Part shown: in pieces, positions 1,800 to 35,290 of the stretch | Layout of the letters: every line of letters begins with the position of its first letter | How positions within the stretch are numbered: position 1 is the first letter of the stretch | DNA from: a virus | Lineage: Duplodnaviria > Caudoviricetes | IMG/VR virus record: IMGVR_UViG_2595698868_000001 | Span: 160,001 to 224,000 of that record | Strand: one strand, 5' to 3' | DNA length: 64,000 nucleotides | Notes under the pieces: model-generated | The model's database searches: none | The model's input: only the letters and a program-made list of their open reading frames with translations | Told to the model about the DNA's origin: nothing | Program-made: the position numbers and the translations under genes

Positions 1800-2972
1800 C
1801 TAGAAGCTGGCGTGATGGGTGAGCATGTAGTCGATGATGTGGGCGTGGTCCTCGAAGGTCTCCTGCGGACGGATTTCCGAAGTGGCCTTCCAGTATGCGT
1901 CCTTGGCGTCATCCATGCCCTGGACCGGCGGGAAGCCCAGGCCGACCGGCAGGTCGAACAAGTAGGCTTCAGTGATCAGGTGACCGCGACGCGAACGGTT
2001 CGGATCGTCGAAGCGCTCGCCTCGGCCCACGAGGTAGCCGATCAGCTTGCGGATCGCTTCGATCACGAAGTCAGGCATCTGAGGTTGCGGTAGGTTGTGC
2101 TGCTCCGCCTTCTTGCAAGCGGCGAGCCACGTGCGCAGGAAGCCCAGGTTCTCCGGCGTGATGAAGAGCCCGGTTTCCTCGATCACTTCGCGGGCCGCGC
2201 CCCACAGCGTCTTCTCGCCGGCGTTGAGGAAGCCGCCCGGCAGGCCGCACATCCCGGTGCCCTCGGGGCCGCCGCGTTCGATCATCAGGATATGGTCGCC
2301 GTAGCGCACGACGCCGTCGACGGTCTGGAACGGTCCCTCGCCCCACTTCTTGCGGTAGGCGATCTCGGCCGCCAACTGCTTCATCAGGTAGGCGTAGACC
2401 GGCTTGTCGCGGAACTTGCGCAGGAAGTCGACCGTGGGTCGCGGCACATCGCGCCAATCGACCTCGTCGCTCCACGAGTCGAAGTCGACGTGGCCCGAGA
2501 AGAAGGCGCGGCGAATAGCGGTCGCATTGGTGCCGCTGTCGGAGACCGGGATATAGTCGTACGCGGGAAACCACGTCAGGTACTCGCTGGTCGCATCGCG
2601 GATGTTGCCGACCAACGAGTAGCGAGGCCGCAGGGCGCTCGACGCCGAACGCATGACCATCTGGACTTGCTCGATCCAGGCCTTCTTGTTGTAAGGCGTG
2701 TCATCGAGCGGAGCGATGCGGATGCGGTGAGCCTCGTCCGGGAAGCGCTCAGCGATACATTGGCGCAGCACTTCCTCACGCTCTTCGAAGGTGAAGGGAT
2801 TGCGGGTGTCACGCGCCACGTTACGCGACCCGATCATCACCTGGACGATCTGCGCCTTCTCCAGACCCTTCTGGATGTTGCGCAAGTGTCCATCCTGGAC
2901 GCCCTGAAGGCGGCCGATGAACCCGGCGACGTCATATTTCATGTCGGTGGAACGGGGTTGAGCGGGCATCAT
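1800..2972 (-). CDS. bifunctional NMN adenylyltransferase / Nudix (ADP-ribose) hydrolase, NadM-Nudix type
   Basis: N-terminal FIGRLQxxxxGH, IGS, RNPFTFEER; Nudix box GGFLNAGEKTLWGAAREVIEETGL; C-terminal FEDHAHII; start 2972 (coupled to upstream stop) or 2942. Confidence 0.9.
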   Translation of the reverse strand: MMPAQPRSTDMKYDVAGFIGRLQGVQDGHLRNIQKGLEKAQIVQVMIGSRNVARDTRNPFTFEEREEVLRQCIAERFPDEAHRIRIAPLDDTPYNKKAWIEQVQMVMRSASSALRPRYSLVGNIRDATSEYLTWFPAYDYIPVSDSGTNATAIRRAFFSGHVDFDSWSDEVDWRDVPRPTVDFLRKFRDKPVYAYLMKQLAAEIAYRKKWGEGPFQTVDGVVRYGDHILMIERGGPEGTGMCGLPGGFLNAGEKTLWGAAREVIEETGLFITPENLGFLRTWLAACKKAEQHNLPQPQMPDFVIEAIRKLIGYLVGRGERFDDPNRSRRGHLITEAYLFDLPVGLGFPPVQGMDDAKDAYWKATSEIRPQETFEDHAHIIDYMLTHHASF

Positions 2973-3283
2973 TCGTCCGTGATTCGGCATTTGCGGCGAG
3001 GTGGTGAGCAGTGGTAGCCGTCGCGGCGACCTGTATAGCTGTAGCCGGTATCCCACTTGCAAAACCCGGCCAGAGTGATCTCAATCAGGCAATCCGCTTC
3101 TTCTTCGATCAGCGGCGAGCCTTCGCGCTTACTGCGGAGCACGGTGGTCAACTCGATCCCTTCACCCAGGACTGCACCATGGAACAGTTGCCGGCGCGCC
3201 CAGGCGATCGCTGCTCCGAAATGGGCGAAGCGCCGCGTACGTTCGTAATCTTCAATGCGTGCGACTTCCGAGGCATCTGCCAT
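2969..3283 (-). CDS. hypothetical protein
   Basis: ORF between promoter at 3427 and NMNAT gene; start uncertain. Confidence 0.55.
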   Translation of the reverse strand: MADASEVARIEDYERTRRFAHFGAAIAWARRQLFHGAVLGEGIELTTVLRSKREGSPLIEEEADCLIEITLAGFCKWDTGYSYTGRRDGYHCSPPRRKCRITDE

Positions 3284-3398
3284 CTGGGGGTCCAGCCACT
3301 TCAAATCGAAGACAGGCCCAAGGGCCTCTTGCTTCGATTGTGCTTTCGACTTCGCCAACGCGGCGTCCCCACTGACTAGGCTGGATAACTTGGAGCGG

Positions 3399-3427
3399 AA
3401 CCTAGATGGCTCGGCGCCGGCTGTCAA
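3399..3427 (-). promoter_or_regulatory. class A sigma70-type promoter
   Basis: GAGAG-TTGACA-17bp-TAGGTT on minus strand. Confidence 0.8.
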
Positions 3428-3476
3428 CTCTCGGCCTCGCCATTTTGGCCGGCATGTCAAAGTTGGTTGCATGATC

Positions 3477-3534
3477 GACCGGAGGTGGGCCGGCGGCAGC
3501 CGGTCACGAGCGCCGCCGAAGGCCAGCGAGTGAT
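3477..3534 (+). repeat. structured dispersed repeat, copy 1 of 3
   Basis: GACCGGAGGT..GCCGGCGGCAGCCGGTCACGAG..CGAGTGAT also at 50796 and 63280. Confidence 0.85.
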
Positions 3535-4301
3535 CACGCGTGATCGAAAACGCGTGCCTCGAAGTTGCTCTCGATCTTCAGCCCCGCCGCCATGGCAAGG
3601 TCGATGATCTCCTCGCTCATGTGACGAGGGAAGTCACGCGAAGCCTGCCTGATTTCCGCAACGGTTCCTGGTCCCACGATCTGGCGGATTTGCCGCTCCA
3701 TCCGATCGAGGTTCTCGAATGTCTCGCACAGGCGGACCATGGTGCGCTCCAGGACACGCTCGGGAGAGACCCAAGAAACACCGTTAGGCAATCGGGGCGA
3801 GTTCTGACCACTGCGCCCATAGACGATGCGTACGTGCCGTCGCGCTTCATTGACCTCGGCGCCGAGGTCTTCGAGCGAGTGGTCCAAGGCCGAGCCGAGA
3901 TGCCAATCGAAGATCATGTCTTCGAGGCGACAGCCGAACTGCCAGAGCATCGCCATCGAGACCAGAAGCGACTTCACATCGGCCTCAGGGAGAGGGCAGT
4001 CTGCTAGACTGAGCAGCGCTTCGGCGCGCTCGAAGGCCGCCGACGCCACTGAAAGCATCCGATTGATCGGGCGCTTCATAGGGTGCAGATCGTCCCAAGC
4101 GTCGTAATTGAAGGGCTTATTCTCCTCGGAACGCAGGTAGGTATCGAACATCTGTTCCTGGTCACGCTTCACTGCGGCGCCGATGATGGATTTGAACATG
4201 GCCGAGTTACCCCAGGCGGACATGGCCTGTGCCGAAATGGCGGCTGCGGTAGACATCGACCCTAAGGCCGCTATCATCTGAGCGTTCTTGGACGTTTTCA
4301 T
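3534..4301 (-). CDS. hypothetical protein
   Basis: 255 aa ORF, overlapping start/stop with upstream gene. Confidence 0.7.
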   Translation of the reverse strand: MKTSKNAQMIAALGSMSTAAAISAQAMSAWGNSAMFKSIIGAAVKRDQEQMFDTYLRSEENKPFNYDAWDDLHPMKRPINRMLSVASAAFERAEALLSLADCPLPEADVKSLLVSMAMLWQFGCRLEDMIFDWHLGSALDHSLEDLGAEVNEARRHVRIVYGRSGQNSPRLPNGVSWVSPERVLERTMVRLCETFENLDRMERQIRQIVGPGTVAEIRQASRDFPRHMSEEIIDLAMAAGLKIESNFEARVFDHA

Positions 4302-4558
4302 CGCACGGCGTGAAGCGGAAGGTTGTTGCTCAGTGGTAGGAAGAAGTCGACCTTGGGCGAAGCTCCACCGGCAATCGCCTTCGTCTCAGCGTCGAAGACC
4401 GAGGTCAGCGCCTCTTCCCGCGTCACGAAGACGCCGGCTGCATGCCCCTTGGCGCGGATCATCTCGGCGAGCAGTTCGCGCGCCATCACCAGCTTCTGAT
4501 CTTCCGTCATCCCCAACAACGTGCGGATATGGTGATCGCGGGCCGACAACTCAGACAT
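4298..4558 (-). CDS. hypothetical protein
   Basis: tiled ORF in minus-strand operon. Confidence 0.65.
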   Translation of the reverse strand: MSELSARDHHIRTLLGMTEDQKLVMARELLAEMIRAKGHAAGVFVTREEALTSVFDAETKAIAGGASPKVDFFLPLSNNLPLHAVR

Positions 4559-4895
4559 GGTGCTCTTTATCCTTGTAGATGATCAGGGCGCTGAGCGTGC
4601 TGTAGAGGCTCAGGAACTGGTCAAGGCTCTCCGTTTCGGCAACCCTGCACATGCCGCCGAAGAACTCGTCGGGTCGGCGTAACTCGGGCCACGTCTCCCA
4701 ATTGATCAGATCACTTTCGGTCACCCGAGAAGCGTCCAAGAAAATCTGGAAGATAGGATCGGTGAACCAGCAGTACGCGACCTGATCACCCTGCTGGATC
4801 GCCAGGATATTTCCGACACGCAAGATGCGGCCGTCCGCGCGCGTCATGTCGCAGCGGTATTCGGCTTCGTAGGAGGTGATCCTGAGGTGGCGCAC
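4551..4895 (-). CDS. hypothetical protein
   Basis: tiled ORF. Confidence 0.65.
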   Translation of the reverse strand: MRHLRITSYEAEYRCDMTRADGRILRVGNILAIQQGDQVAYCWFTDPIFQIFLDASRVTESDLINWETWPELRRPDEFFGGMCRVAETESLDQFLSLYSTLSALIIYKDKEHHV

Positions 4896-4900
4896 CCGAA

Positions 4901-5392
4901 CTAGGCCTTCTTCCAGTTTAGCAGGCGGTAGACGCTGTTGCGCGTGCGGATGATGCCCTTATCGTCGGGGCCAGCGAGGATGTAGCTGGTCGTGATGATC
5001 TCGCCGCGCCGGAAGCGCCCCTTGCGATCCTCGCTGACCAGGACGCCGCGCGCGATGTTGTACTTGTCGACCTTGAAGATCGTCGCGCGATCCAGTTCAC
5101 CGTCGACTTCCAGGGTGAGATCGACGACATGCGGACCCCAAAGGTCGCGCGACGTATAGATCGTCGCCTTGCGGTTCAGGTTGAGACGTTCGATGAACGT
5201 GGGCCACCAGGGTTGCAGGCTGTAGATGAAGTAGAGGTTGTTCACCTCCGTATCGGTCAGCGCGTCGCCCGGTGTGAAATCGATGGACACGTGGTGCCAC
5301 GCGATCGTGTTGTCCTCGTCCGAGAGGAAGGCGCGATATAGGGGCCGTTGGCGGTCGAACGCGGGCGCTTCGGGGCTGGTGTCGTAAGGCAT
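4901..5392 (-). CDS. hypothetical phage protein
   Basis: tiled ORF; C-terminal DRKGRF..G..ITTS...TRNSVYRL resembles a common phage motif. Confidence 0.7.
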   Translation of the reverse strand: MPYDTSPEAPAFDRQRPLYRAFLSDEDNTIAWHHVSIDFTPGDALTDTEVNNLYFIYSLQPWWPTFIERLNLNRKATIYTSRDLWGPHVVDLTLEVDGELDRATIFKVDKYNIARGVLVSEDRKGRFRRGEIITTSYILAGPDDKGIIRTRNSVYRLLNWKKA

Positions 5393-5404
5393 CTTGGTCT
5401 CGAT

Positions 5405-5647
5405 TTAAGGCTTGGGTTTGTACTCGTCCCAGAACTGCGAGGTGTCCATGAACAGGAATCCATGAAGCACCCGCAGCCAGTCATGGACTTCCGACGGCGG
5501 ACCACCTGGAGCCACACCGCCGTAATAGGCGCAGTAGCAAGGTCCGGGGCCTGCTCCGATACAATCCTCACAATCGTAGGATGGCCAGCCCAGCCGATCC
5601 AACCAAAGGAAGATTGCCCAGAAGAGGCGCGAGCGTCGGAAGCCCAT
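5405..5647 (-). CDS. small Cys-containing hypothetical protein
   Basis: CEDC..CYC motif, tiled ORF. Confidence 0.55.
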   Translation of the reverse strand: MGFRRSRLFWAIFLWLDRLGWPSYDCEDCIGAGPGPCYCAYYGGVAPGGPPSEVHDWLRVLHGFLFMDTSQFWDEYKPKP

Positions 5648-15426: not shown

Positions 15427-15488
15427 CAGCGCAAGCGGAATCCTCTGTGCGTCAAGAGTTGACAAACGACAGCTTCACCAGCTAGGTG
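15427..15488. promoter_or_regulatory. back-to-back divergent promoters at the strand switch
   Basis: CGTCAA-GAG-TTGACA: TTGACG on minus (weak -10) and TTGACA..GCTAGG on plus. Confidence 0.6.
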
Positions 15489-21001: not shown

Positions 21002-22228
21002 ATGTACGATCAGCTTCTCCGCCTCTTCCAAGGCAACCCGATTCTAGCCGGCGGCGCCGGCATGGCAATCATCGGCTGGCTCCTCGTGCAGGCGCGGACC
21101 GTACCCGTCAAAGTCTTCCGACTGATCCGCGATCAGTTCGTGACGACCATGACGGTCTACACCGAAGACGTGATCTTCCGCCGCTTGGATTACTGGCTGA
21201 GCCGTCACCCCAGCACGGAGCACTCGCGTCGTTTTGGGGTTACGCATTGGCACAATCGTCGTACCGATGCGGATGACTTCCTCCTGACCCCCGGTTCGGG
21301 CTCGCACTTGATCAAAGAAGTCGGCCGCTACTTCCTGGTCCACCGCCACGTCGAGGATAAGACGACCCAGGAAGACTTCGCCAAGATTCGTCGCCAGACG
21401 ATCACGATCGCGACCTACGGCCGATCCACCGCACCTCTGAAGAACTTGATTTCCAAGGTGCAGCACATCGACGAAGACCGCACGGCCATTCCGATTTTGA
21501 ACTGGCAGGGCCACGGCTTTGCCCGAGTTGAGCGCCGCACCAAGCGTCCGCTAGACACGGTCTACATCAACGCTGCGATCAAGCAGCATATCATCGACGA
21601 CCTGACGAAGTTCTTTGCGCAGCGCGCCGACTATCATGCACGAGGCATCCCCTACCGCCGGGGGTACATGTTGGAAGGTCCGCCCGGAACCGGTAAGTCG
21701 ACGCTGATCTTCGTTCTCGCCTGCCTGTTCGATCGTCCGGTCTACATCATCAATTTGGCGAGCATCAGCAACGATTCTGAACTGCTGCGCGCCATCAACG
21801 AAGCTGGCCGCAACTTCGTCGTCATCGAAGATATCGACGCGATCAAGGTCGCCGAAGAGCGCGAGGGCAAGGACTCCAGCTTGGAAGTGCGCGTCGGTGA
21901 TGCGTCTCGACAAGGCATCACGACTTCGGGCTTGCTGAACGCCATCGACGGGATCGCCTCGGCCGAGGGCCGAGTGCTCTTCATCACCTCGAACCGGCCG
22001 GATGTGCTGGATTCTGCCCTCATCCGTCCTGGCCGCATCGACGTGCGCTATCGCATCGACTATGCCAAGATGCCCGAGGCCCTGGCGATGTACCGCAAGT
22101 TCTTTCCGGAGGCCTCTGCCGAGGCGCAGGCGGCGTTCGCGAAGGAAATCGCGCCGCTGCTTCCGATTTCGCCGGCCGCGCTTCAAAATCGCCTGTTGGG
22201 CGAGTCCATGGAAGTGGTGATGTCGTGA
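21002..22228 (+). CDS. BCS1-like membrane-anchored AAA+ ATPase
   Basis: N-terminal TM; KRPLDTV, GIPYRRGYMLEGPPGTGKS, VIEDID, SGLLNAIDG, LDSALIRPGRID. Confidence 0.88.
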   Translation: MYDQLLRLFQGNPILAGGAGMAIIGWLLVQARTVPVKVFRLIRDQFVTTMTVYTEDVIFRRLDYWLSRHPSTEHSRRFGVTHWHNRRTDADDFLLTPGSGSHLIKEVGRYFLVHRHVEDKTTQEDFAKIRRQTITIATYGRSTAPLKNLISKVQHIDEDRTAIPILNWQGHGFARVERRTKRPLDTVYINAAIKQHIIDDLTKFFAQRADYHARGIPYRRGYMLEGPPGTGKSTLIFVLACLFDRPVYIINLASISNDSELLRAINEAGRNFVVIEDIDAIKVAEEREGKDSSLEVRVGDASRQGITTSGLLNAIDGIASAEGRVLFITSNRPDVLDSALIRPGRIDVRYRIDYAKMPEALAMYRKFFPEASAEAQAAFAKEIAPLLPISPAALQNRLLGESMEVVMS

Positions 22229-22286: not shown

Positions 22287-22694
22287 ATGCCACTCTCCGA
22301 AGACGAAGCCCTCCTCCTCCGCGACGGTGATATCGTGCTCGTGCCTATCAAGGTGGTGCGCTCGAACAATCACTTTGATCGCGATGGCGTCTCGCTTCGA
22401 GTTCAGTCCCCGCAGATTCTTCACGGCCGGGATGAGATCGAGAAGGGGCAGCCGGAATTCAGCATCAAATCCTCGCAGGTCCACAGCATTGCTGTGATGC
22501 CCCTGCGCCTGAAGGATCACGTGAAGTGGGATGCGTCCGGTCCGGGCGCCGATTACATGCCGGAGACCGGCGTGGTCGTCCACATCGATGGCGACGACAT
22601 CACCGTGAAGCAGGACAAGGAACGCACGCCGCGAAACCGAGTGATCCTCCGCAGTGCCCTCACCCGTTACAACCCTAAGCCCAAAGAGGCCTGA
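22287..22694 (+). CDS. hypothetical protein
   Basis: ORF after promoter. Confidence 0.7.
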   Translation: MPLSEDEALLLRDGDIVLVPIKVVRSNNHFDRDGVSLRVQSPQILHGRDEIEKGQPEFSIKSSQVHSIAVMPLRLKDHVKWDASGPGADYMPETGVVVHIDGDDITVKQDKERTPRNRVILRSALTRYNPKPKEA

Positions 22695-23278
22695 TGACCT
22701 CCCCGCAATCCTCGACGCACCGCGTCATTCGTATCCTCAGCCGCGTGATCTTTGAGACTCGGTGGCTGCTGGTCCCGATCTATCTGGCGATGATCATCGC
22801 CATCGCGGCCTATGTGATCCTGTTCACGAAGCAGGCCATCGATATGGGCCTGGGCGTATGGCATTGGGATGCGGAGCACTTGCTGCTCGCCTCCCTCGCG
22901 CTCGTCGACATGTCGATGGTCGCCAACCTGATCGTCATGATCCTGGCCGGCGGTTTCTCAACCTTCGTCGCCGAGTTCGATCAGAGTCTGTTCCCGAATC
23001 GCCCGCGCTGGATGAACGGACTCGACAGCACCACGCTGAAGATTCAGATGGGTAAGTCGCTCATCGGCGTCACGTCGGTTCACCTTCTCCAGACGTTCAT
23101 GCGCCTGCATGACATTCTGAAGGAAGAGAACGGCAAGTTCCTCGTCGCTACCGAGATCATCATCCACATGGTCTTCATCATCACGACGGTCGCCTACTGC
23201 TACATCTCCAAGCTCACCCACGGCCACAAGGTCGCGCCGGCAGCCCTGCCGACGCCGGCCTCTGCGGAAGGACACTAA
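22694..23278 (+). CDS. YqhA / UPF0114 membrane protein
   Basis: RWLLVPIYL, LVDMSMVANLIVM..GG..FV, LKI...SVHLL..FM. Confidence 0.85.
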   Translation: MTSPQSSTHRVIRILSRVIFETRWLLVPIYLAMIIAIAAYVILFTKQAIDMGLGVWHWDAEHLLLASLALVDMSMVANLIVMILAGGFSTFVAEFDQSLFPNRPRWMNGLDSTTLKIQMGKSLIGVTSVHLLQTFMRLHDILKEENGKFLVATEIIIHMVFIITTVAYCYISKLTHGHKVAPAALPTPASAEGH

Positions 23279-23280
23279 AC

Positions 23281-23793
23281 ATGAAGCTCCTGCGAGCTAT
23301 CCTCCTCGGCGCGACCGCCGGCCTGCTGGTCGCCGGCCCGCTCGCCCTCTCGGGCTGTACGGACCCCGTCGCCCGTCACCACGTCGTGCGTGGCAAGCAC
23401 AAGGTCCACAAGCTCTCAGACGGCCGCTATGCCTTCCAAGGCGACAACGGCGTCTGGTACTGGTACATCTACAGCGCCAACAACTCGGCGCGGCTGGAAG
23501 ACGGCACGCTCGCCATGCCGGGCGCCTGGACCGCCGGCGGCGAGCCTGACGCCAGCGACCTCGCGGCTGGGTTCGACTTCGACTTCGACATCCCGACCCT
23601 GGACGGCGGAGCCCCGATCTCCGAATCGCAAGCGGCTTCGATCGAGAGCGGCGCCGCTGAAGCGACGTCGGAAGCTGGCGGCGGTATGTCGGACACTTCG
23701 TCGGGTCCCTCGGACTCGTCCCCGTCGGTCGACTCCAGCGTCGATTCGGGCGGCGGCGGCGACTCCGGTGGTGGCGGGGGCGACGGAGGCTGA
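23281..23793 (+). CDS. putative lipoprotein with Ser/Gly/Asp-rich tail
   Basis: LSGC lipobox; DSGGGGDSGGGGGDGG end. Confidence 0.75.
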   Translation: MKLLRAILLGATAGLLVAGPLALSGCTDPVARHHVVRGKHKVHKLSDGRYAFQGDNGVWYWYIYSANNSARLEDGTLAMPGAWTAGGEPDASDLAAGFDFDFDIPTLDGGAPISESQAASIESGAAEATSEAGGGMSDTSSGPSDSSPSVDSSVDSGGGGDSGGGGGDGG

Positions 23794-23795
23794 TC

Positions 23796-24356
23796 ATGGG
23801 TCAGTACATCTGGCATGATCTGCCGCTCGACGAGCGGCTTAGCAAGCCCAAGATCGATGATCGCCCTGGAGCCCGGTTGAAGGCGGAGGATGCCCGAGGG
23901 CTCCTTCATTTCCCGGACCGTCTTGGCGATCTCCTGACCCTCAAGAGCTGCCTCGCCGGCGCCAAGATCGTTTTCAGTGGAAACGGTTATGCGCCGTCGG
24001 TGACGGCCTGGGGCTGGACACCGCGCGACCAAGAGGTCATCGAAGACTACGTCAAGCGTCGCGTCGAGAAGCACATGAGCAGTCTGACCGAACGTCAGGG
24101 CCTCGTACTCCTCGCTGTACGTAATGACGGCAGCGTCGATGTTGCGACCTGGGGCAAGTCGTCCCAGGACTGCAAGGTGCTCGGTGACCTTGGCAGCAAG
24201 GAATTGGGCGCACTGCCGTCGTGTCCTTTCCAGACTTGGTGGGGCTGGGGCAATGGAGGCGTGCCCAAGCGTTTCCCTGCGCAGACCCTCAAGACGCTGT
24301 CGGAGAACGCCCAGGCCTACGTCAAGAAGAACACGCATCCTGGCGCGGTAGGCTGA
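23796..24356 (+). CDS. hypothetical protein
   Basis: GGAGG RBS, tiled ORF. Confidence 0.7.
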   Translation: MGQYIWHDLPLDERLSKPKIDDRPGARLKAEDARGLLHFPDRLGDLLTLKSCLAGAKIVFSGNGYAPSVTAWGWTPRDQEVIEDYVKRRVEKHMSSLTERQGLVLLAVRNDGSVDVATWGKSSQDCKVLGDLGSKELGALPSCPFQTWWGWGNGGVPKRFPAQTLKTLSENAQAYVKKNTHPGAVG

Positions 24357-24718
24357 TGGAGGGTACCTCCTACTGTTGCCCAGACTGTGGTGAGGGTTTT
24401 CCCAGCCGCTACAGTCTGGGCCAGCATATGAAGGCAGCGCATCCGGTCGTGCCTCAGGTCTTGAACATCCGCGACTACCCTGATGGCCTGCCGCCTAACT
24501 CGACTTATGTCGGGCGGGGCACGTTCGCTGGAAATCCCTATCGCATTGGAATCGATGGGACGCGAGATGAGGTCATCAACCATTATGAGGACACGCGCGA
24601 ACTGGATGAAGCCTTCGTAGCCAGGGTGCGCAAAGAACTGCGCGGCCGGCATCTCGTATGTCACTGCGCGCCAGAGCGATGTCATGCCGACTGGCTGCTC
24701 AGGATCGCCAACAGCTAA
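24356..24718 (+). CDS. DUF4326 protein with N-terminal C2H2 zinc finger
   Basis: CPDC..F..L.QHMKAAH; YVGRG..GNPY, LRGRHLVCHCAPERCHAD. Confidence 0.8.
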   Translation: MEGTSYCCPDCGEGFPSRYSLGQHMKAAHPVVPQVLNIRDYPDGLPPNSTYVGRGTFAGNPYRIGIDGTRDEVINHYEDTRELDEAFVARVRKELRGRHLVCHCAPERCHADWLLRIANS

Positions 24719-24744
24719 GCCCTTGCTTTCGCGAGAAATCATCG

Positions 24745-24796
24745 TTATCCATGTGGCGAGTTTGGGGCCAGATTAGGGCTTCATTAACCATGTGGC
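24745..24796 (+). promoter_or_regulatory. CtrA-like box / direct repeat upstream of hfa-like operon
   Basis: TTAG-N7-TTAACCAT at 24773-24791; TTA(T/A)CCATGTGGC repeated at 24745 and 24784. Confidence 0.5.
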
Positions 24797-24901
24797 TGAA
24801 AAATAACGATAAATCTTGAACCCGAAAGTTGACAAACGCCGTAATCTCGAAGATGAAGGCGTCAAGTTCAACTTCAAACGCGAAAGGGGAGTCCTCACCA
24901 C

Positions 24902-25393
24902 ATGAAGCTCAAGATCATCGCCATGGCCGGCATGCTCGCTGGCGTCGCTATCGCCGGCGCGGCCTGTGCCCAAGCGGTCGGGGAGGACTCCACCTGGAAA
25001 TTCCGCACCCCGTCCGAGAACGTCATCCTCCAGCAGAACCTGGACAAGATCGACCTCCAGAAGGCCGGCTACTACGACAAGCTGAAGAACGGCGCCTATG
25101 GCCTGGGCGGCAGCGCCGGCGCGGCCGGCGGGCTGCTCGGAGGCGGAGCCTCGACCATCAGCAACTACTACTCGATCACGAACCAGACCACGAACAACTG
25201 CTCGTCGTCTGGTTCGGTCGGTTCGCCGATCTCCTGCGGCTCGGGCTCGATCACGAGCAGCGGCGTCTCGCAGTCGACGGTCGGCTCGTCCCTGGACTCC
25301 AACACCGCGCTGACGGGCAACACCGTCACCAGTACGGGGAACAAGACCCAGGTCGGCGGCACCATCAACAACAATCAGCAGCCGCAGCAGTAG
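24902..25393 (+). CDS. secreted G/S/N/T-rich protein, HfaA/curlin-like
   Basis: signal peptide; low-complexity polar beta-prone C-terminus; first gene before HfaB/CsgG homolog. Confidence 0.6.
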   Translation: MKLKIIAMAGMLAGVAIAGAACAQAVGEDSTWKFRTPSENVILQQNLDKIDLQKAGYYDKLKNGAYGLGGSAGAAGGLLGGGASTISNYYSITNQTTNNCSSSGSVGSPISCGSGSITSSGVSQSTVGSSLDSNTALTGNTVTSTGNKTQVGGTINNNQQPQQ

Positions 25394-25402
25394 GGGGCGA
25401 AC

Positions 25403-26248
25403 TTGAACCGCAAGGTCTACATCCGCGCCGCCCTCGCGGTGGCGCTGCTGGCTTCGGCCGCCGCTATGCCGGCCCAAGCCGCTTCCAAGAAGAAGCCGAT
25501 CGCCACGAACCTCGGCAGCACGCCGACGGTCAACGCCGATCCGCTGGCCGCAGGCTTTGCCTGCACGAGCCAACTCACGGCCCAGGCTGCGCATCCGCTG
25601 CGTATCGCCGTCGGCAAGGTCGGTGACTTCACCGGCAAATTCTCGAACGAAGCCTCCGAAGGCGGCTTCCGCGTGACGCAGGGCGGCGCCCTGATGATCT
25701 CCAGCGCCCTGGGCAAGCTGGCCAACGTCGACCAAGTCGAGCGTCTGGACACGCAGGTCGCCGACATCGACACGCTGCTGGCGAAGTCTCAACTGCTTCG
25801 CGACGGTGACGCCCTGCGCGGCCTGACCGCCGGCCAGTATGACGGCTCCGACTACTACATCATCGGCGGCATCACCGAGGTGAACTACAACATCCGCTCG
25901 GGCGGCGGCAAGGTCGGCGTCTCGAACATCTACGGCGGCAAGCGTACGTACACGATGAACGTCGCGGCCGATCTGAAGATCGTCGAAACCAAGTCGCTGA
26001 AGGTCGTCAAGACCATCAGCGTCCAGAAGCAAATCACGGGCTACGAGAACACGTTCGGCCTGTTCACCTTCAAGGGCGACTACCTCTTCGACCTGGACTT
26101 CGGGTCGAAGGGGCAGGAGCCGCTCCAACTCGGGGTTCGCTCCGTCCTGGAGTACGGTACCCTGGAACTCGTCTCGGCGGTGGCTCCGAATCGTGACTAC
26201 TATGTCGCGACGTGCCGCCCCTACGCCGAGGCGATGTTCGGGAAGTAA
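25403..26248 (+). CDS. HfaB/CsgG-family secretion/anchor protein
   Basis: IAVGKVGDFTGK, GFRVTQGGALMISSAL, VERLD, IIGGITEVNYNIRSGG, MNVAADL, SVQKQITGYE, QEPLQLGVR. Confidence 0.88.
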   Translation: MNRKVYIRAALAVALLASAAAMPAQAASKKKPIATNLGSTPTVNADPLAAGFACTSQLTAQAAHPLRIAVGKVGDFTGKFSNEASEGGFRVTQGGALMISSALGKLANVDQVERLDTQVADIDTLLAKSQLLRDGDALRGLTAGQYDGSDYYIIGGITEVNYNIRSGGGKVGVSNIYGGKRTYTMNVAADLKIVETKSLKVVKTISVQKQITGYENTFGLFTFKGDYLFDLDFGSKGQEPLQLGVRSVLEYGTLELVSAVAPNRDYYVATCRPYAEAMFGK

Positions 26249-26336
26249 AGGGGAGGGGCAACCCAACCTGACAGCGTTTGGTGCGGACGCTGGTTTCTCC
26301 CCGCACTTTTCCCTGAAACAAACGACGAAGGACCCT

Positions 26337-27266
26337 ATGCGCAAGCTCATCCTCGCTTCCGCCGCCCTGGCGGCCCTCTTCGCGGCGCCCGCCGCGTTTG
26401 CCGGCAACATCACGACCGGCGTGAATGGCTTCAACCAGAACAACACCACCCCGCAACTGTCGGGGACCCTGCTGACCAACATCAAGGTCGGCGACAAGAT
26501 CGACGCCTCGGCCGCCGCTGTCGGCAACAACCTGAGCCTCGAAGCCAACGGCAACATCACGATCTCGGCCGGCAACCTGGACCAGCAGAACAGCGGCCTG
26601 CAAGTCGGCGCCCTGATCGTGAACGACTCGAAGCTGAACAAGGGCTCGCTGGAAGCCAAGGCCATCGGCAACTCGATCTCCCTGAAGGCCGGCGGCACCG
26701 TCGACGGCGGCAACAACGGCATCGAGCAGATCAACAGCGGCCCGCAGATCGGCGCCCTGGTCGTGAACGACGTGAAGGCCTCGGGCAACATCGACGCTTC
26801 GGCCGTGGCCGTCGGCAACGCTGTCTCGGTCAATGCCGGCACCGACTTCTCGGTCTACGGTGGTGGCTTCGATCGTCAGACCAACTCGGCCCTGCAAGTC
26901 GGCGTCGCGCTGGTGAACGACTCGAAGTTCGGCGGCAAGCTGGACGTCCTGGCCCAAGCCGTCGGCAACAGCCTGTCGACCGACACCTCGTCCACGACCC
27001 TGCAATGGTCGCAGCGCAACACCGCGCCGCAGTTCGCCCTGGCCGCCATCACCGACGTCAAGGCCTCGGGCAACACCTCGATCTCGTCCGTCGCCGCCGG
27101 CAACCTGATCAACGTCTCGACCAACAACATCGGCCAGACCGCGATCTTCCAGACCAACTTCGCGCCGCAAGTCGCCGCCACGTACATCGCCGGCAGCAAC
27201 TTCTCGGCCGACCTGACCGCCGGCTCGACCGCGATCGGCAACTCGGTCAGCGTCAAGGCCCACTAA
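26337..27266 (+). CDS. HfaD-like secreted repeat protein (amyloid/beta-solenoid-prone)
   Basis: signal peptide; about six repeats of QxNxxxQ(V/I)xA ... A(V/I)GN(S/N)xS. Confidence 0.72.
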   Translation: MRKLILASAALAALFAAPAAFAGNITTGVNGFNQNNTTPQLSGTLLTNIKVGDKIDASAAAVGNNLSLEANGNITISAGNLDQQNSGLQVGALIVNDSKLNKGSLEAKAIGNSISLKAGGTVDGGNNGIEQINSGPQIGALVVNDVKASGNIDASAVAVGNAVSVNAGTDFSVYGGGFDRQTNSALQVGVALVNDSKFGGKLDVLAQAVGNSLSTDTSSTTLQWSQRNTAPQFALAAITDVKASGNTSISSVAAGNLINVSTNNIGQTAIFQTNFAPQVAATYIAGSNFSADLTAGSTAIGNSVSVKAH

Positions 27267-27300
27267 GCCTTCGATCTGAACTGAGATACTGGACTACGGA

Positions 27301-27330
27301 AAGCCCGGCGCGAGCGCCGGGCTTTTCTTT
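27301..27330 (+). terminator. intrinsic terminator of hfa-like operon
   Basis: AAGCCCGGCGC-GA-GCGCCGGGCTT followed by TTCTTT. Confidence 0.9.
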
Positions 27331-27346
27331 CGGCTGACACCGAGTG

Positions 27347-27376
27347 TTGACAGCCGGCGCCGGGGCAGTCTAAAAC
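27347..27376 (+). promoter_or_regulatory. class A promoter
   Basis: TTGACAGCCGGCGC..TCTAAAAC. Confidence 0.78.
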
Positions 27377-27402
27377 CGACATCTGATCTGACAGGAGACC
27401 TC

Positions 27403-28086
27403 GTGACCAAGAAGAGCCGATACATCGCTCCGACGCTTGCCAAGGACGTGCTCGAAAACAGCCGTTTCTTCGGCTCGGACTCGGTCTTCAATGGTAAGCT
27501 CTTCGAAGGCGACGAGCGCCTCGTGGTCATCGTTGGCGAGAATGCGTCGGGCAAGAGCCTGCTCTTCCGTTCAATGGCGGCCTGGGTCAAGAAGGACTAT
27601 AAAGTCACCGGTATCACGATCTCGATTCGAGAGCGCACGGACAGTACGGTCCCGTTCCGCCGCTCGTTCATGTTCGGCGAAGAGTCCGAGAAGTCGACCG
27701 GCGCCAATTCCTTCCAAGTGATCGAGGCTGGACTCAGAAATGCCGAGGGCGGCGGCCACGGTCAGACCCTACTGATGCTGGATGAGCCGGAGATCGGCCT
27801 GTCCGACGGCTACGCGCGAGCGCTCGGTGAGTACCTGGGCCAACGCGCCTTGACCCTAACCGACGCCTGTCAAGGCCTAGTGGTTGTGACCCATAGCCAC
27901 AGTCTCGTACGAGGTGCTGTGGAAGGCCTCAAGACGGCCCCGACCTTCGTTCACGTGGGCAGCCAGCCGAAGCCTTTGGACGAATGGCTCGGGACCACTG
28001 AATACCGCACTGTCGAAGACCTCTCGAAACTCGGCGATCTCGCCCTGGAGCGCTGGCGTGCGATCCAGAAACTCATGAAAGACTGA
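27403..28086 (+). CDS. stand-alone ABC-type ATPase
   Basis: Walker A GENASGKS, Walker B LMLDEPE, H-loop VVVTHS. Confidence 0.82.
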   Translation: MTKKSRYIAPTLAKDVLENSRFFGSDSVFNGKLFEGDERLVVIVGENASGKSLLFRSMAAWVKKDYKVTGITISIRERTDSTVPFRRSFMFGEESEKSTGANSFQVIEAGLRNAEGGGHGQTLLMLDEPEIGLSDGYARALGEYLGQRALTLTDACQGLVVVTHSHSLVRGAVEGLKTAPTFVHVGSQPKPLDEWLGTTEYRTVEDLSKLGDLALERWRAIQKLMKD

Positions 28087-28088
28087 CC

Positions 28089-28400
28089 ATGAAGCGCCTG
28101 TTCCTAGCGGCTGCGGCCGTCCTGTCCTTGACAGCCTGCACCAAGGGCGACCTGCTCGTTTCCAATCAGGAGGCAGTAGCCGCCGTGCGCCTGTTCGGTG
28201 TCAAGGACGTCGTGCTCGAACGGCCGGAGTTCAATTGCGATGCCTACGGCGATCAGCCGCGCGTCTCGCCGACACCAGGGGCCTCGTACCTTCAGAACGG
28301 CTACTTCTTCCGTGGCACCCAGAATGGCAAGCCCGTGAAGGGCGCAGTCTGCGTAGGCTACGGCCGCACGCCACGTGTCCAGATCAACGGCATCCAATGA
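28089..28400 (+). CDS. putative lipoprotein
   Basis: LTAC lipobox. Confidence 0.72.
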   Translation: MKRLFLAAAAVLSLTACTKGDLLVSNQEAVAAVRLFGVKDVVLERPEFNCDAYGDQPRVSPTPGASYLQNGYFFRGTQNGKPVKGAVCVGYGRTPRVQINGIQ

Positions 28401-35031: not shown

Positions 35032-35290
35032 TGCACCATCGGCGCGCATGTTGATCGCTCAGGCCTATGCACGCCAGTTCGGTACCCAGGTCGAGCGGGT
35101 GCCGCATGATCGGCGACATCCCGCCGGCAAGCGATTTTACCGCATCAACACCCGAGGCTTTGTGATCGAGGTCCACGCGCCAACCTATATCGTCGTCGCC
35201 CAGGTCGTTTGCCGCTCGAAGGCAGAAGCCGATGAGTCTATCAACATTCTCTTGGGCCAAAGAGTTGACAGACGGCAACGCACGGGCTAG
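35024..35290 (+). CDS. hypothetical protein
   Basis: tiled ORF reading into promoter. Confidence 0.55.
   Translation: MTDAPSARMLIAQAYARQFGTQVERVPHDRRHPAGKRFYRINTRGFVIEVHAPTYIVVAQVVCRSKAEADESINILLGQRVDRRQRTG

Follow-up and report, generated by a model that had tools for sequence, protein, structure and literature searches.

In Caulobacter crescentus, the holdfast-anchor system is encoded by the hfaA-hfaB-hfaD operon, in which HfaB is a CsgG-like protein, described as a lipoprotein in bioRxiv 10.1101/2022.07.20.500906, and HfaA and HfaD form multimers on the cell surface, for the targeting of which HfaB is required, according to PMC6707917. Channels of the CsgG family are also known from phages, for example the pelagimyophages and the Methylophilales phage Melnitz, for which PMC9004378 proposes a gated CsgG/CsgF pore with a role in the timing of lysis. 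The present analysis deals with a unit of three genes (the trio), located at positions 24,902–27,330 of a 64,000-nucleotide stretch of viral DNA, here called the window, which corresponds to bases 160,001–224,000 of the 279,967-bp virus record IMGVR_UViG_2595698868_000001 (CheckV completeness of 96%). It is reasonably likely that this unit is an accessory cassette, carried by the phage, for an Hfa-like (type VIII-like) secretion system, which would export an HfaD-like, probably beta-helical protein onto the surface of infected cells.

The genes and non-coding elements of the unit, by their positions in the window, are as follows (aa, amino acids; nt, nucleotides; ORF, open reading frame):

24902–25393, plus strand: gene 1, 163 aa, ATG start; secreted G/S/T/N-rich protein of an unnamed family
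25403–26248, plus strand: gene 2, 281 aa, TTG start 9 nt past the gene 1 stop; predicted channel of the CsgG/HfaB family
26337–27266, plus strand: gene 3, 309 aa, with HfaD-family repeats; the full ORF spans 26193–27266, with the likely ATG start at 26337
24719–24901, plus strand: leader, non-coding and conserved, with a -35-like TTGACA at 24829–24834
26250–26302, plus strand: stem-loop between genes 2 and 3, with an inner hairpin at 26272–26292
27298–27335, plus strand: intrinsic terminator, with a hairpin at 27298–27327 (13-pair GC-rich stem, 4-nt loop) and a T-run

In the proposed mechanism, transcription would start from a phage promoter of the host sigma-70 type and end at the strong terminator, and all three products would reach the periplasm through their Sec signal peptides. 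The product of gene 2 would form a channel in the outer membrane, through which that of gene 3 would pass, to be displayed on the cell surface as a beta-helical protein or polymer. The product of gene 1, predicted to be mostly disordered and always accompanying this channel subfamily, would act as a co-substrate or adaptor. The assembly of the channel, the export, the surface display, and the benefit to the phage are all modelled on what is known of CsgG and HfaB, and by this analogy, infected cells probably display surface proteins made by the phage. The benefit would most likely be that of a coat or adhesin on the infected cell, which either masks receptors or makes the cell stick.

The sequence-only reading of this stretch described a phage-encoded, rather than host-derived, unit of three genes, and both points hold. 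The segment 24,800–27,400 shares 95.9% nucleotide identity (over 2,601 nt) with the Caulobacter phage CcrPW, a 308-kb member of the genus Colossusvirus that infects C. vibrioides CB15 (C. crescentus CB15), while the 8-kb stretch around the trio is 90.7% identical to this phage and collinear with it. The trio is therefore phage DNA, and not host DNA, and comes from a CcrPW-like jumbo Caulobacter phage. The same three genes appear in CcrPW as gp250–252, where gp251 is annotated as a "putative transcription activator protein hfaB" and gp250 and gp252 are listed as hypothetical. The record of the Brevundimonas phage Kabachok, in turn, lists a "curli production assembly protein".

The assignment of gene 2 to the CsgG/HfaB superfamily, already made in the sequence-only reading, is supported by its profile matches. 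The protein reaches 51.3 bits against the Pfam CsgG profile (PF03783, cut-off 20.8), with residues 58–259 covering profile positions 2–200 of 210, and it aligns with the solved structure of the Escherichia coli CsgG (PDB 4uv3) over residues 66–258 (E 9e-6). Two cysteines, C54 and C271, are invariant across a 15-sequence alignment of gene 2. The score against the NCBIfam HfaB equivalog model (NF037935) is 206.9 bits, below the cut-off of 300. In a set of 401 genomes from one class, 14 have an HfaB above this cut-off (363–416 bits), each with a single match to the HfaB family, and the other matches to the model comprise five at 216–234 bits, and the rest at no more than 179 bits. Given these single matches, the relatives of the hosts seem to lack a second type of channel.

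This bears on one alternative, in which the phage has copied the host hfaA-hfaB-hfaD operon, and the copy acts on the holdfast anchor, either by complementing it or by poisoning it, with the detachment of the cell as the outcome. The order of the genes (small secreted protein, HfaB-like protein, HfaD-like protein) mirrors that of the host operon, the Caulobacter and Brevundimonas hosts are producers of holdfast, and the part played by HfaB in the targeting of HfaA and HfaD, as given in PMC6707917, would suit such an action. However, gene 2 is only 38–44% identical to the 14 canonical HfaB proteins, in comparison with 54% to a bacterial homologue from the Stellaceae, and all 14 of the genomes with canonical HfaB have just the one HfaB-family match, so that a channel of the second type is seemingly absent from the relatives of the hosts. 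The phylogeny also points away from a host copy. In a maximum-likelihood tree of 43 channel domains, from which duplicate genomic places (L015–L033 and L003) were excluded, the channels of the window phage, CcrPW, and Kabachok form a single clade (support 100/98), which is sister to the channel of a Stellaceae contig from a metagenome-assembled genome (MAG), L004 (99/93). The phages and L004 are nested in a clade composed mostly of OmpA-fused "CsgG/HfaB family" proteins (97/91), and the canonical HfaB clade (99/96) is, in turn, the sister of this larger group. On this tree, gene 2 falls outside the canonical HfaB clade, in a sister subfamily, and its nearest bacterial counterpart is a trio from outside the Caulobacterales. 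The cassette would thus be a related sister form, rather than a copy, of the host hfaABD operon. Given that the first gene has no detectable relation to HfaA, and that the third is merely 22–25% identical to true HfaD, the origin of the unit as a copy of the host operon is distinctly unlikely, and the low identity of gene 3 also makes the poisoning of the host anchor less likely.

The N-terminus of gene 2 reads MNRKVYIRAALAVALLASAAAMPAQA, with AS after the cleavage point, a type-I-like signal peptide (…AQA, then AS) with no cysteine in it or after it when read by eye, as the sequence-only reading had observed of the missing lipobox. Read in the same way, the channels of the window phage and CcrPW have …LLASAAAMPAQA followed by AS at the point where their relatives have the lipobox cysteine. 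This cysteine (…(G/A)C) is found in all of the canonical and bacterial HfaB homologues inspected, as well as in Kabachok (…LSTAAC). Among 14 close relatives that were fetched (P0046–P0086, short-type), the cysteine is present in seven, including one that is 92% identical, and absent from the other seven. The lipid anchor is therefore recurrently missing from intact genes of the subfamily, which suggests repeated switches between lipidated and non-lipidated forms of the channel.

The candidate substrate of this channel is the product of gene 3, which has a signal peptide followed by six repeats of approximately 48 residues, each running from QxN to AxGNxxS. The QxN motifs are located at residues 34, 83, 131, 181, 226, and 272, and the AxGN motifs at residues 61, 109, 158, 208, 253, and 299, so the AxGN/QxN architecture proposed for this protein is confirmed. 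The profile of gene 3 and three relatives was aligned by hhalign with that of seven HfaD proteins encoded beside a canonical hfaB (the neighbour search captured the HfaD gene in seven of the 14 canonical loci). The two profiles match over 349 columns with a probability of 96.1% (E 3.1e-9, score 72.5), while the reversed profile reaches 12.1 and none of 30 column shuffles scores above 14.0. Both alignments have the QxN and AxGN columns. Gene 3 is thus placed, by this profile comparison, as a full-length homologue of HfaD, belonging to the HfaD family in the broad sense. In the protein atlas, its nearest neighbours are clusters of the HfaD family (score 0.92, 193 shared features), in which 52–70% of the members carry the Pfam HfaD domain (PF27277), although this is a lead only. 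The scan of gene 3 against Pfam was blank because the copy of Pfam used does not include PF27277. The AlphaFold2 model of the protein is all-beta, with a mean predicted local distance difference test (pLDDT) of 86.5 and a predicted template modelling score (pTM) of 0.85. Curlin was also considered as the identity of this protein and rejected: the phage genome has no match to the curlin repeat (PF07012) at E <= 1, and the comparison of the HfaD/gene 3 profile with the E. coli CsgA gives a probability of 0.2%. The suggestion that the unit secretes curli-like substrates was, then, not sustained.

Gene 1 differs most from the system that its position would lead one to expect. Its product has a signal-peptide-like N-terminus, and the mature protein is composed of 15.8% G, 15.8% S, 10.8% T, and 9.4% N, which bears out the earlier description of a secreted G/S/N/T-rich protein. 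It matched no family in Pfam, NCBIfam, or PHROG. An exhaustive HMMER search of 1.84 billion representatives recovered 29 relatives at E <= 1e-3, with lengths of 94–200 aa and uninformative names, while word-based protein searches found seven relatives for gene 1 and two for gene 3. The best score in the protein atlas, 0.87, was to unnamed clusters and is under the level at which the tool gives more than a lead, and a search of the PDB sequences with the profiles of genes 1 and 3 returned only chance or low-complexity matches. The members of the family share the motif GEDxxW(Q/K)FRxP just past the signal peptide (the WxFR motif), followed by a helix and a glycine-rich linker, and then a cysteine pair, TNNC…(S/T)CG, and a T/N-rich tail.

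Three known proteins were considered as identities for gene 1, and each was rejected. In the case of HfaA, the NCBIfam model (NF037934, cut-off 50 bits) gave no match at E <= 1, and the profile of the gene 1 family, when compared with 11 HfaA sequences, had an hhalign probability of 2.4%. The sole weak match to the HfaA model in the phage genome (15.8 bits; G000:C1:52587-52739) is located outside the window and inside a frame of 2,751 aa, which is probably a repeat-rich structural protein. For HfaE, bioRxiv 10.1101/2022.07.20.500906 gives the motifs PHPASQV, CNERSLLR, and DGGVG, and a reading of gene 1 and 33 aligned members of its family found none of the three, with the rest of the phage genome not searched for HfaE.

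The case of CsgF is closer, and includes a functional alternative, in which gene 1 is an analogue of CsgF, a cap or adaptor whose mature N-terminus plugs the barrel of the channel, rather than a fibre subunit. The mature start of the E. coli CsgF, GTMTFQFRNP (annotated K-12 record), resembles the GEDxxW(Q/K)FRxP found after the signal peptide in the gene 1 family, and hhalign pairs exactly these stretches. Gene 1 also lies immediately upstream of the channel gene, with a gap of 9 nt, and its predicted structure is largely disordered apart from a single helix (residues 37–54). Against these likenesses, the hhalign probability is only 10% with the E. coli CsgF and 9.6% with an alignment of 23 CsgF sequences, where the match consists mostly of the signal peptide; there is no match to the Pfam CsgF model (PF10614), and gene 1 does not have the NPxFGGNP motif, which 22 of the 23 CsgF sequences contain. 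Membership of the CsgF family was rejected on these grounds, and the role of a CsgF-like plug is considered unlikely.

Taken together, the profile and phylogenetic comparisons agree in part with the earlier label of an hfaA-hfaB-hfaD operon. The middle gene is of the HfaB family and the third is related to HfaD, while the first of the two flanking proteins has no detectable relation to HfaA, and the channel does not fall in the canonical HfaB clade. As the phage channels group outside that clade, as the sister of a Stellaceae trio with the same gene order, the description of the unit as an hfaA-hfaB-hfaD operon captured from the host appears to be only partly right.

The distribution of the cassette was assessed in 112 loci other than the window, 81 of which came from IMG/VR and metagenomes, 11 from MAG contigs, 18 from genome stretches, and two from phage records; the ORFs of these loci were scanned with hidden Markov models (HMMs) built in the analysis. 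An ORF of the gene 1 family is found directly upstream of the channel gene in 33 of the 112 loci and HfaA in 16, with no locus having both. The full trio, with an HfaD-like gene downstream, was recognized in six of the 33 (the CcrPW locus, Kabachok, L004, L073, L072, and L070), while five other loci have weak matches to the HfaA model (17–24 bits) downstream of more distant CsgG-like genes. The L004 contig is presumably bacterial, judging from adjoining ORFs that were read as ethanolamine ammonia-lyase-like and LarA-like. By contrast, L070 is a 499,572-bp IMG/VR contig classed as viral, with a gene 1-like protein, a non-lipidated HfaB-like channel with no lipobox cysteine, and a 475-aa HfaD-like protein at 2490–5405, in flanks unrelated to those of the window phage. 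In these arrangements, a member of the gene 1 family is joined by a channel of the HfaB type and a protein of the HfaD type, which makes the cassette a distinct Hfa variant, common to some bacteria outside the group that bears canonical HfaB and to at least three lineages of very large phages.

Among 50,697 phage records searched by tblastn, gene 2 matched 13 at E <= 1e-3, which correspond to two record copies of CcrPW, five Brevundimonas pondensis jumbo phages (55% identity), four of Melnitz, and two of HTVC008M (25% identity), whereas genes 1 and 3 matched only CcrPW. The Brevundimonas homologues of genes 1 and 3 emerged only when the neighbouring ORFs were compared directly by BLASTP, and the trio is thus found in the five Brevundimonas jumbo phages, as well as in the 500-kb IMG/VR contig. 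The order of the trio is kept in Kabachok, with different neighbours.

The trio was not detected by tblastn (E <= 1e-3) in CcrBL9, CcrSC, or the Bertelyvirus phages, where the downstream ATPase-like gene is present. This patchy occurrence, together with flanks that differ between the Caulobacter and Brevundimonas phages, would be compatible with a passenger, that is, bacterial DNA acquired recently and without a part in the life cycle of the phage. The GC content at third codon positions (GC3) may be read in the same way, given that it is 0.92, 0.86, and 0.93 in genes 1, 2, and 3, in comparison with 0.61–0.89 in 20 neighbouring genes. The trio also has a lower synonymous divergence (dS) from CcrPW, of 0.09–0.21, than its four flanking genes (0.35–1.14), and the low dS and high GC3 may fit a later acquisition or an exchange between phages, or strong codon selection. 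The ratios of nonsynonymous to synonymous substitution (dN/dS) between the window phage and CcrPW are 0.014 for gene 1, 0.031 for gene 2, and 0.149 for gene 3, and on these values all three genes are considered to be under strong purifying selection. The phage copies, in addition, form one clade that spans 55% protein identity, none of the phages inspected has a broken reading frame in the trio, and even the non-coding parts are conserved, all of which makes it highly improbable that the unit is a mere passenger.

A further alternative gives the main role to gene 2, as a pore that alters the permeability of the outer membrane or times lysis, with genes 1 and 3 as accessories. The pelagimyophages and Melnitz carry distant CsgG homologues (25% identity), for which such a lysis-timing pore has been proposed (PMC9004378), and a channel that is not lipidated is unusual. 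The same source describes these phages as having no fibre or substrate genes, whereas an HfaD-like repeat protein stands beside the channel in every member of the present subfamily, phage or bacterial, for which flanks are available. The purifying selection on the 309-aa product of gene 3 also runs counter to an accessory role, and no lysis genes were noticed among the ten neighbours of the trio that were scanned. A role confined to permeability or lysis is, then, quite improbable, and an export cassette with its own putative substrate is preferred.

The non-coding parts of the unit probably carry regulatory information, given that they are more conserved than silent sites. The leader (24719–24901) differs from that of CcrPW at two of 183 positions, and the spacer between genes 2 and 3 (26249–26336; 89 alignment columns) at two positions, while 82 of the 756 third codon positions differ. 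The leader and this spacer are thus approximately five to ten times more conserved than the third codon positions, and when the leader and both spacers are pooled (5/281 versus 82/756), the difference has a Fisher p of 2e-7. The terminator after gene 3 is strong, as had been claimed: it folds at -33.9 kcal/mol (z -3.69), and none of 200 shuffles folds as well, even though it was not listed by a simple consensus scan. The hairpin reported near 26272 does exist, with nine pairs and a 3-nt loop, but the region between genes 2 and 3 folds unexceptionally (z -0.22), with 65 of 200 shuffles folding as well. In the Rfam scan of 24600–27450, there were two matches, both under the gathering scores, and the CtrA box TTAA-N7-TTAA has no match in the window.

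A scan for the sigma-70 consensus returned no plus-strand site upstream of gene 1. There is, nevertheless, a perfect TTGACA at 24829, within a motif, (A/G)AGTTGACA, that is repeated ahead of many plus-strand genes in the window. In its full form, (A/G)AGTTGACA is followed by G(C/A)CGGC and then, after approximately 17 nt, by a CTAA-like -10 element. The motif is found on the plus strand at 15459, 17541, 22230, 24829, 27347, 29274, and 31779, and further along at 35265, 39681, 40648, 51101, 52927, 58788, and 63470. The window has 30 TTGACA sites, in comparison with 18.5 ± 4.8 expected, and 20 of the 30 are on the plus strand. This recurrent motif looks like a family of host sigma-70-type promoters used by the phage.

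The gene directly upstream of the cassette (24353–24718) encodes a C2H2 zinc finger fused to DUF4326. Other genes nearby, at 21002–22228, 22694–23278, 23281–23793, and 28089–28400, appear to be directed to the envelope, and encode a BCS1-like AAA ATPase, a UPF0114 membrane protein, and a pair of small proteins whose N-termini resemble lipoboxes (…LSGC; and …LTAC, which is phrog_902).

A number of observations weigh against an export cassette of the kind proposed here, and temper the confidence placed in it. As gene 2 has no lipid-anchor cysteine, its insertion into the outer membrane is not assured. Its separation from canonical HfaB is also marginal in the approximately unbiased (AU) test: with the phages constrained to group with canonical HfaB, the tree loses 12.8 log-likelihood units, and the p is 0.0475, for a group that was named after the tree had been seen. 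For gene 3, the NCBIfam HfaD model (NF037936) gives 23.3 bits (E 3.5e-5), below its cut-off of 100, and a Foldseek search of the model against the PDB found nothing at E <= 0.001. The top match of the exhaustive aligner VIA was the secretion domain of the filamentous haemagglutinin (FHA), with a Z of 9.7 and a root-mean-square deviation (rmsd) of 3.0 over 132 aligned residues, and there were further matches to SufD-type helices, HMW1 (Z 8.9), and EtpA (Z 8.4), although Z values of 8–10 are barely over the usual background of 7–8. Most of the 50 listed matches are proteins that we take to be beta-helices, from the titles of the entries and their known folds. With Z so near the background, gene 3 is called a probable beta-helix, and nothing more specific. 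The monomer model of gene 1 has a low confidence (pLDDT 45.5), which makes the role of the protein as a co-substrate or adaptor a tentative one. Finally, the -10 region of the motif copy at 24829 deviates from those of the other copies, and so, of the promoter that the unit was said to have, the TTGACA in its recurrent motif stands, while a consensus sigma-70 site and a regular -10 do not.

A broader proposal can be put forward only tentatively, and is more doubtful than the cassette itself: that very large phages of the Caulobacterales, and at least one uncultured phage of approximately 500 kb, carry a complete fibre or adhesin secretion system of their own (channel, adaptor, and beta-helical substrate), which provides the infected cell with a coat or glue specified by the phage. 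If this were true, the coat could prevent superinfection by covering the polar receptors, or hold the infected cell against susceptible cells in its vicinity ("sibling capture"). This would also be the first phage-encoded type VIII-like system to bring its own substrate, and the repeated loss of the lipid anchor would be the sign of a channel variant with another mode of assembly. The CsgG-like pores of the marine myophages are known without a substrate, and have a puzzling role, whereas the channel considered here is accompanied by two secreted proteins, one of them conserved, HfaD-like, and probably beta-helical. Cultured phages carry the cassette, under purifying selection, and their host is amenable to genetics (C. 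crescentus CB15, in the case of CcrPW). The cassette represents a sister branch to the holdfast-anchor system, with another small protein in the place of HfaA, and may help to clarify the functions of HfaB and HfaD alone. Part of this was already known: the HfaB-like gene is named as such in the record of CcrPW, and CsgG pores that lack substrates have been published for phages (PMC9004378). In the full text of the literature searched, no description was found of the trio as a unit or the HfaD homology of its third gene, nor of the replacement of HfaA, the position outside the host-type clade, or the presence in several lineages of huge phages, although an earlier mention in the description of the CcrPW genome is possible.

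Among the known systems, the marine phages offer the nearest precedent for a phage-encoded channel of the CsgG family. The channels of the pelagimyophage HTVC008M and of Melnitz are, however, only 25% identical to gene 2, and these phages have CsgF, but lack any gene for a fibre or substrate (PMC9004378), whereas the trio has no CsgF detectable with Pfam and does have a putative substrate.

The curli system of E. coli shares with the trio the fold family of the CsgG channel and secreted repeat proteins with Q/N-rich motifs, and gene 3, judging from its model, probably has a beta-solenoid architecture like that of CsgA, although CsgA is matched by VIA with a Z of 7.6–7.9 at an rmsd of 8–9. It differs in that no curlin repeat is found in the phage, and the repeats of gene 3 have approximately 48 residues, in comparison with approximately 22 in the curlin repeat. 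In the alignment with PDB 4uv3, the residues of gene 2 opposite the …YPASNF… loop of CsgG, which presumably lines the pore, are also different.

The OmpA-fused CsgG/HfaB proteins of the Pseudomonadota, named "CsgG/HfaB family protein" or "OmpA family protein" by NCBI, share the larger clade of the phage channel (97/91), and in these systems too, the channel is always preceded by a relative of gene 1, in a longer form. The channels themselves are longer (415–535 aa), with a C-terminal extension that often has an OmpA domain, and the next gene encodes a non-repeat protein of approximately 400 aa, followed, where the flanks reach, by repeat proteins of more than 860 aa. In the bacterial loci L005–L013 and L059–L062, for example, a gene 1-like protein of approximately 230 aa precedes an HfaB-like channel with a C-terminal extension (OmpA in many of the database relatives), with the protein of approximately 400 aa next in most of the loci, and then, in the loci with flanks long enough to show them, repeat proteins that have AxGN-type motifs and lengths of more than 860 to 1,270 aa.

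The hfaA-hfaB-hfaD operon of C. crescentus has the same order as the trio, with a small secreted protein, a CsgG/HfaB channel, and a repeat protein of the HfaD family. The trio departs from it in being encoded by a phage and in its first gene, which belongs to another family, and not to that of the curlin-like HfaA, as well as in its channel, which is placed in the sister clade, falls short of the HfaB cut-off (207 bits, with 300 required), and is devoid of the lipobox cysteine, and in a third protein that shares only 22–25% of its residues with HfaD. The closest counterpart is the Stellaceae MAG trio (L004, 2183–4848, with L073 and L072 as close relatives), which has the same three families in the same order and a channel that is 54% identical to that of the phage, and differs in being located on a bacterial contig, in a channel that keeps its lipobox (…LGLGAC), and in the length of its HfaD-like protein, which has 433 aa.

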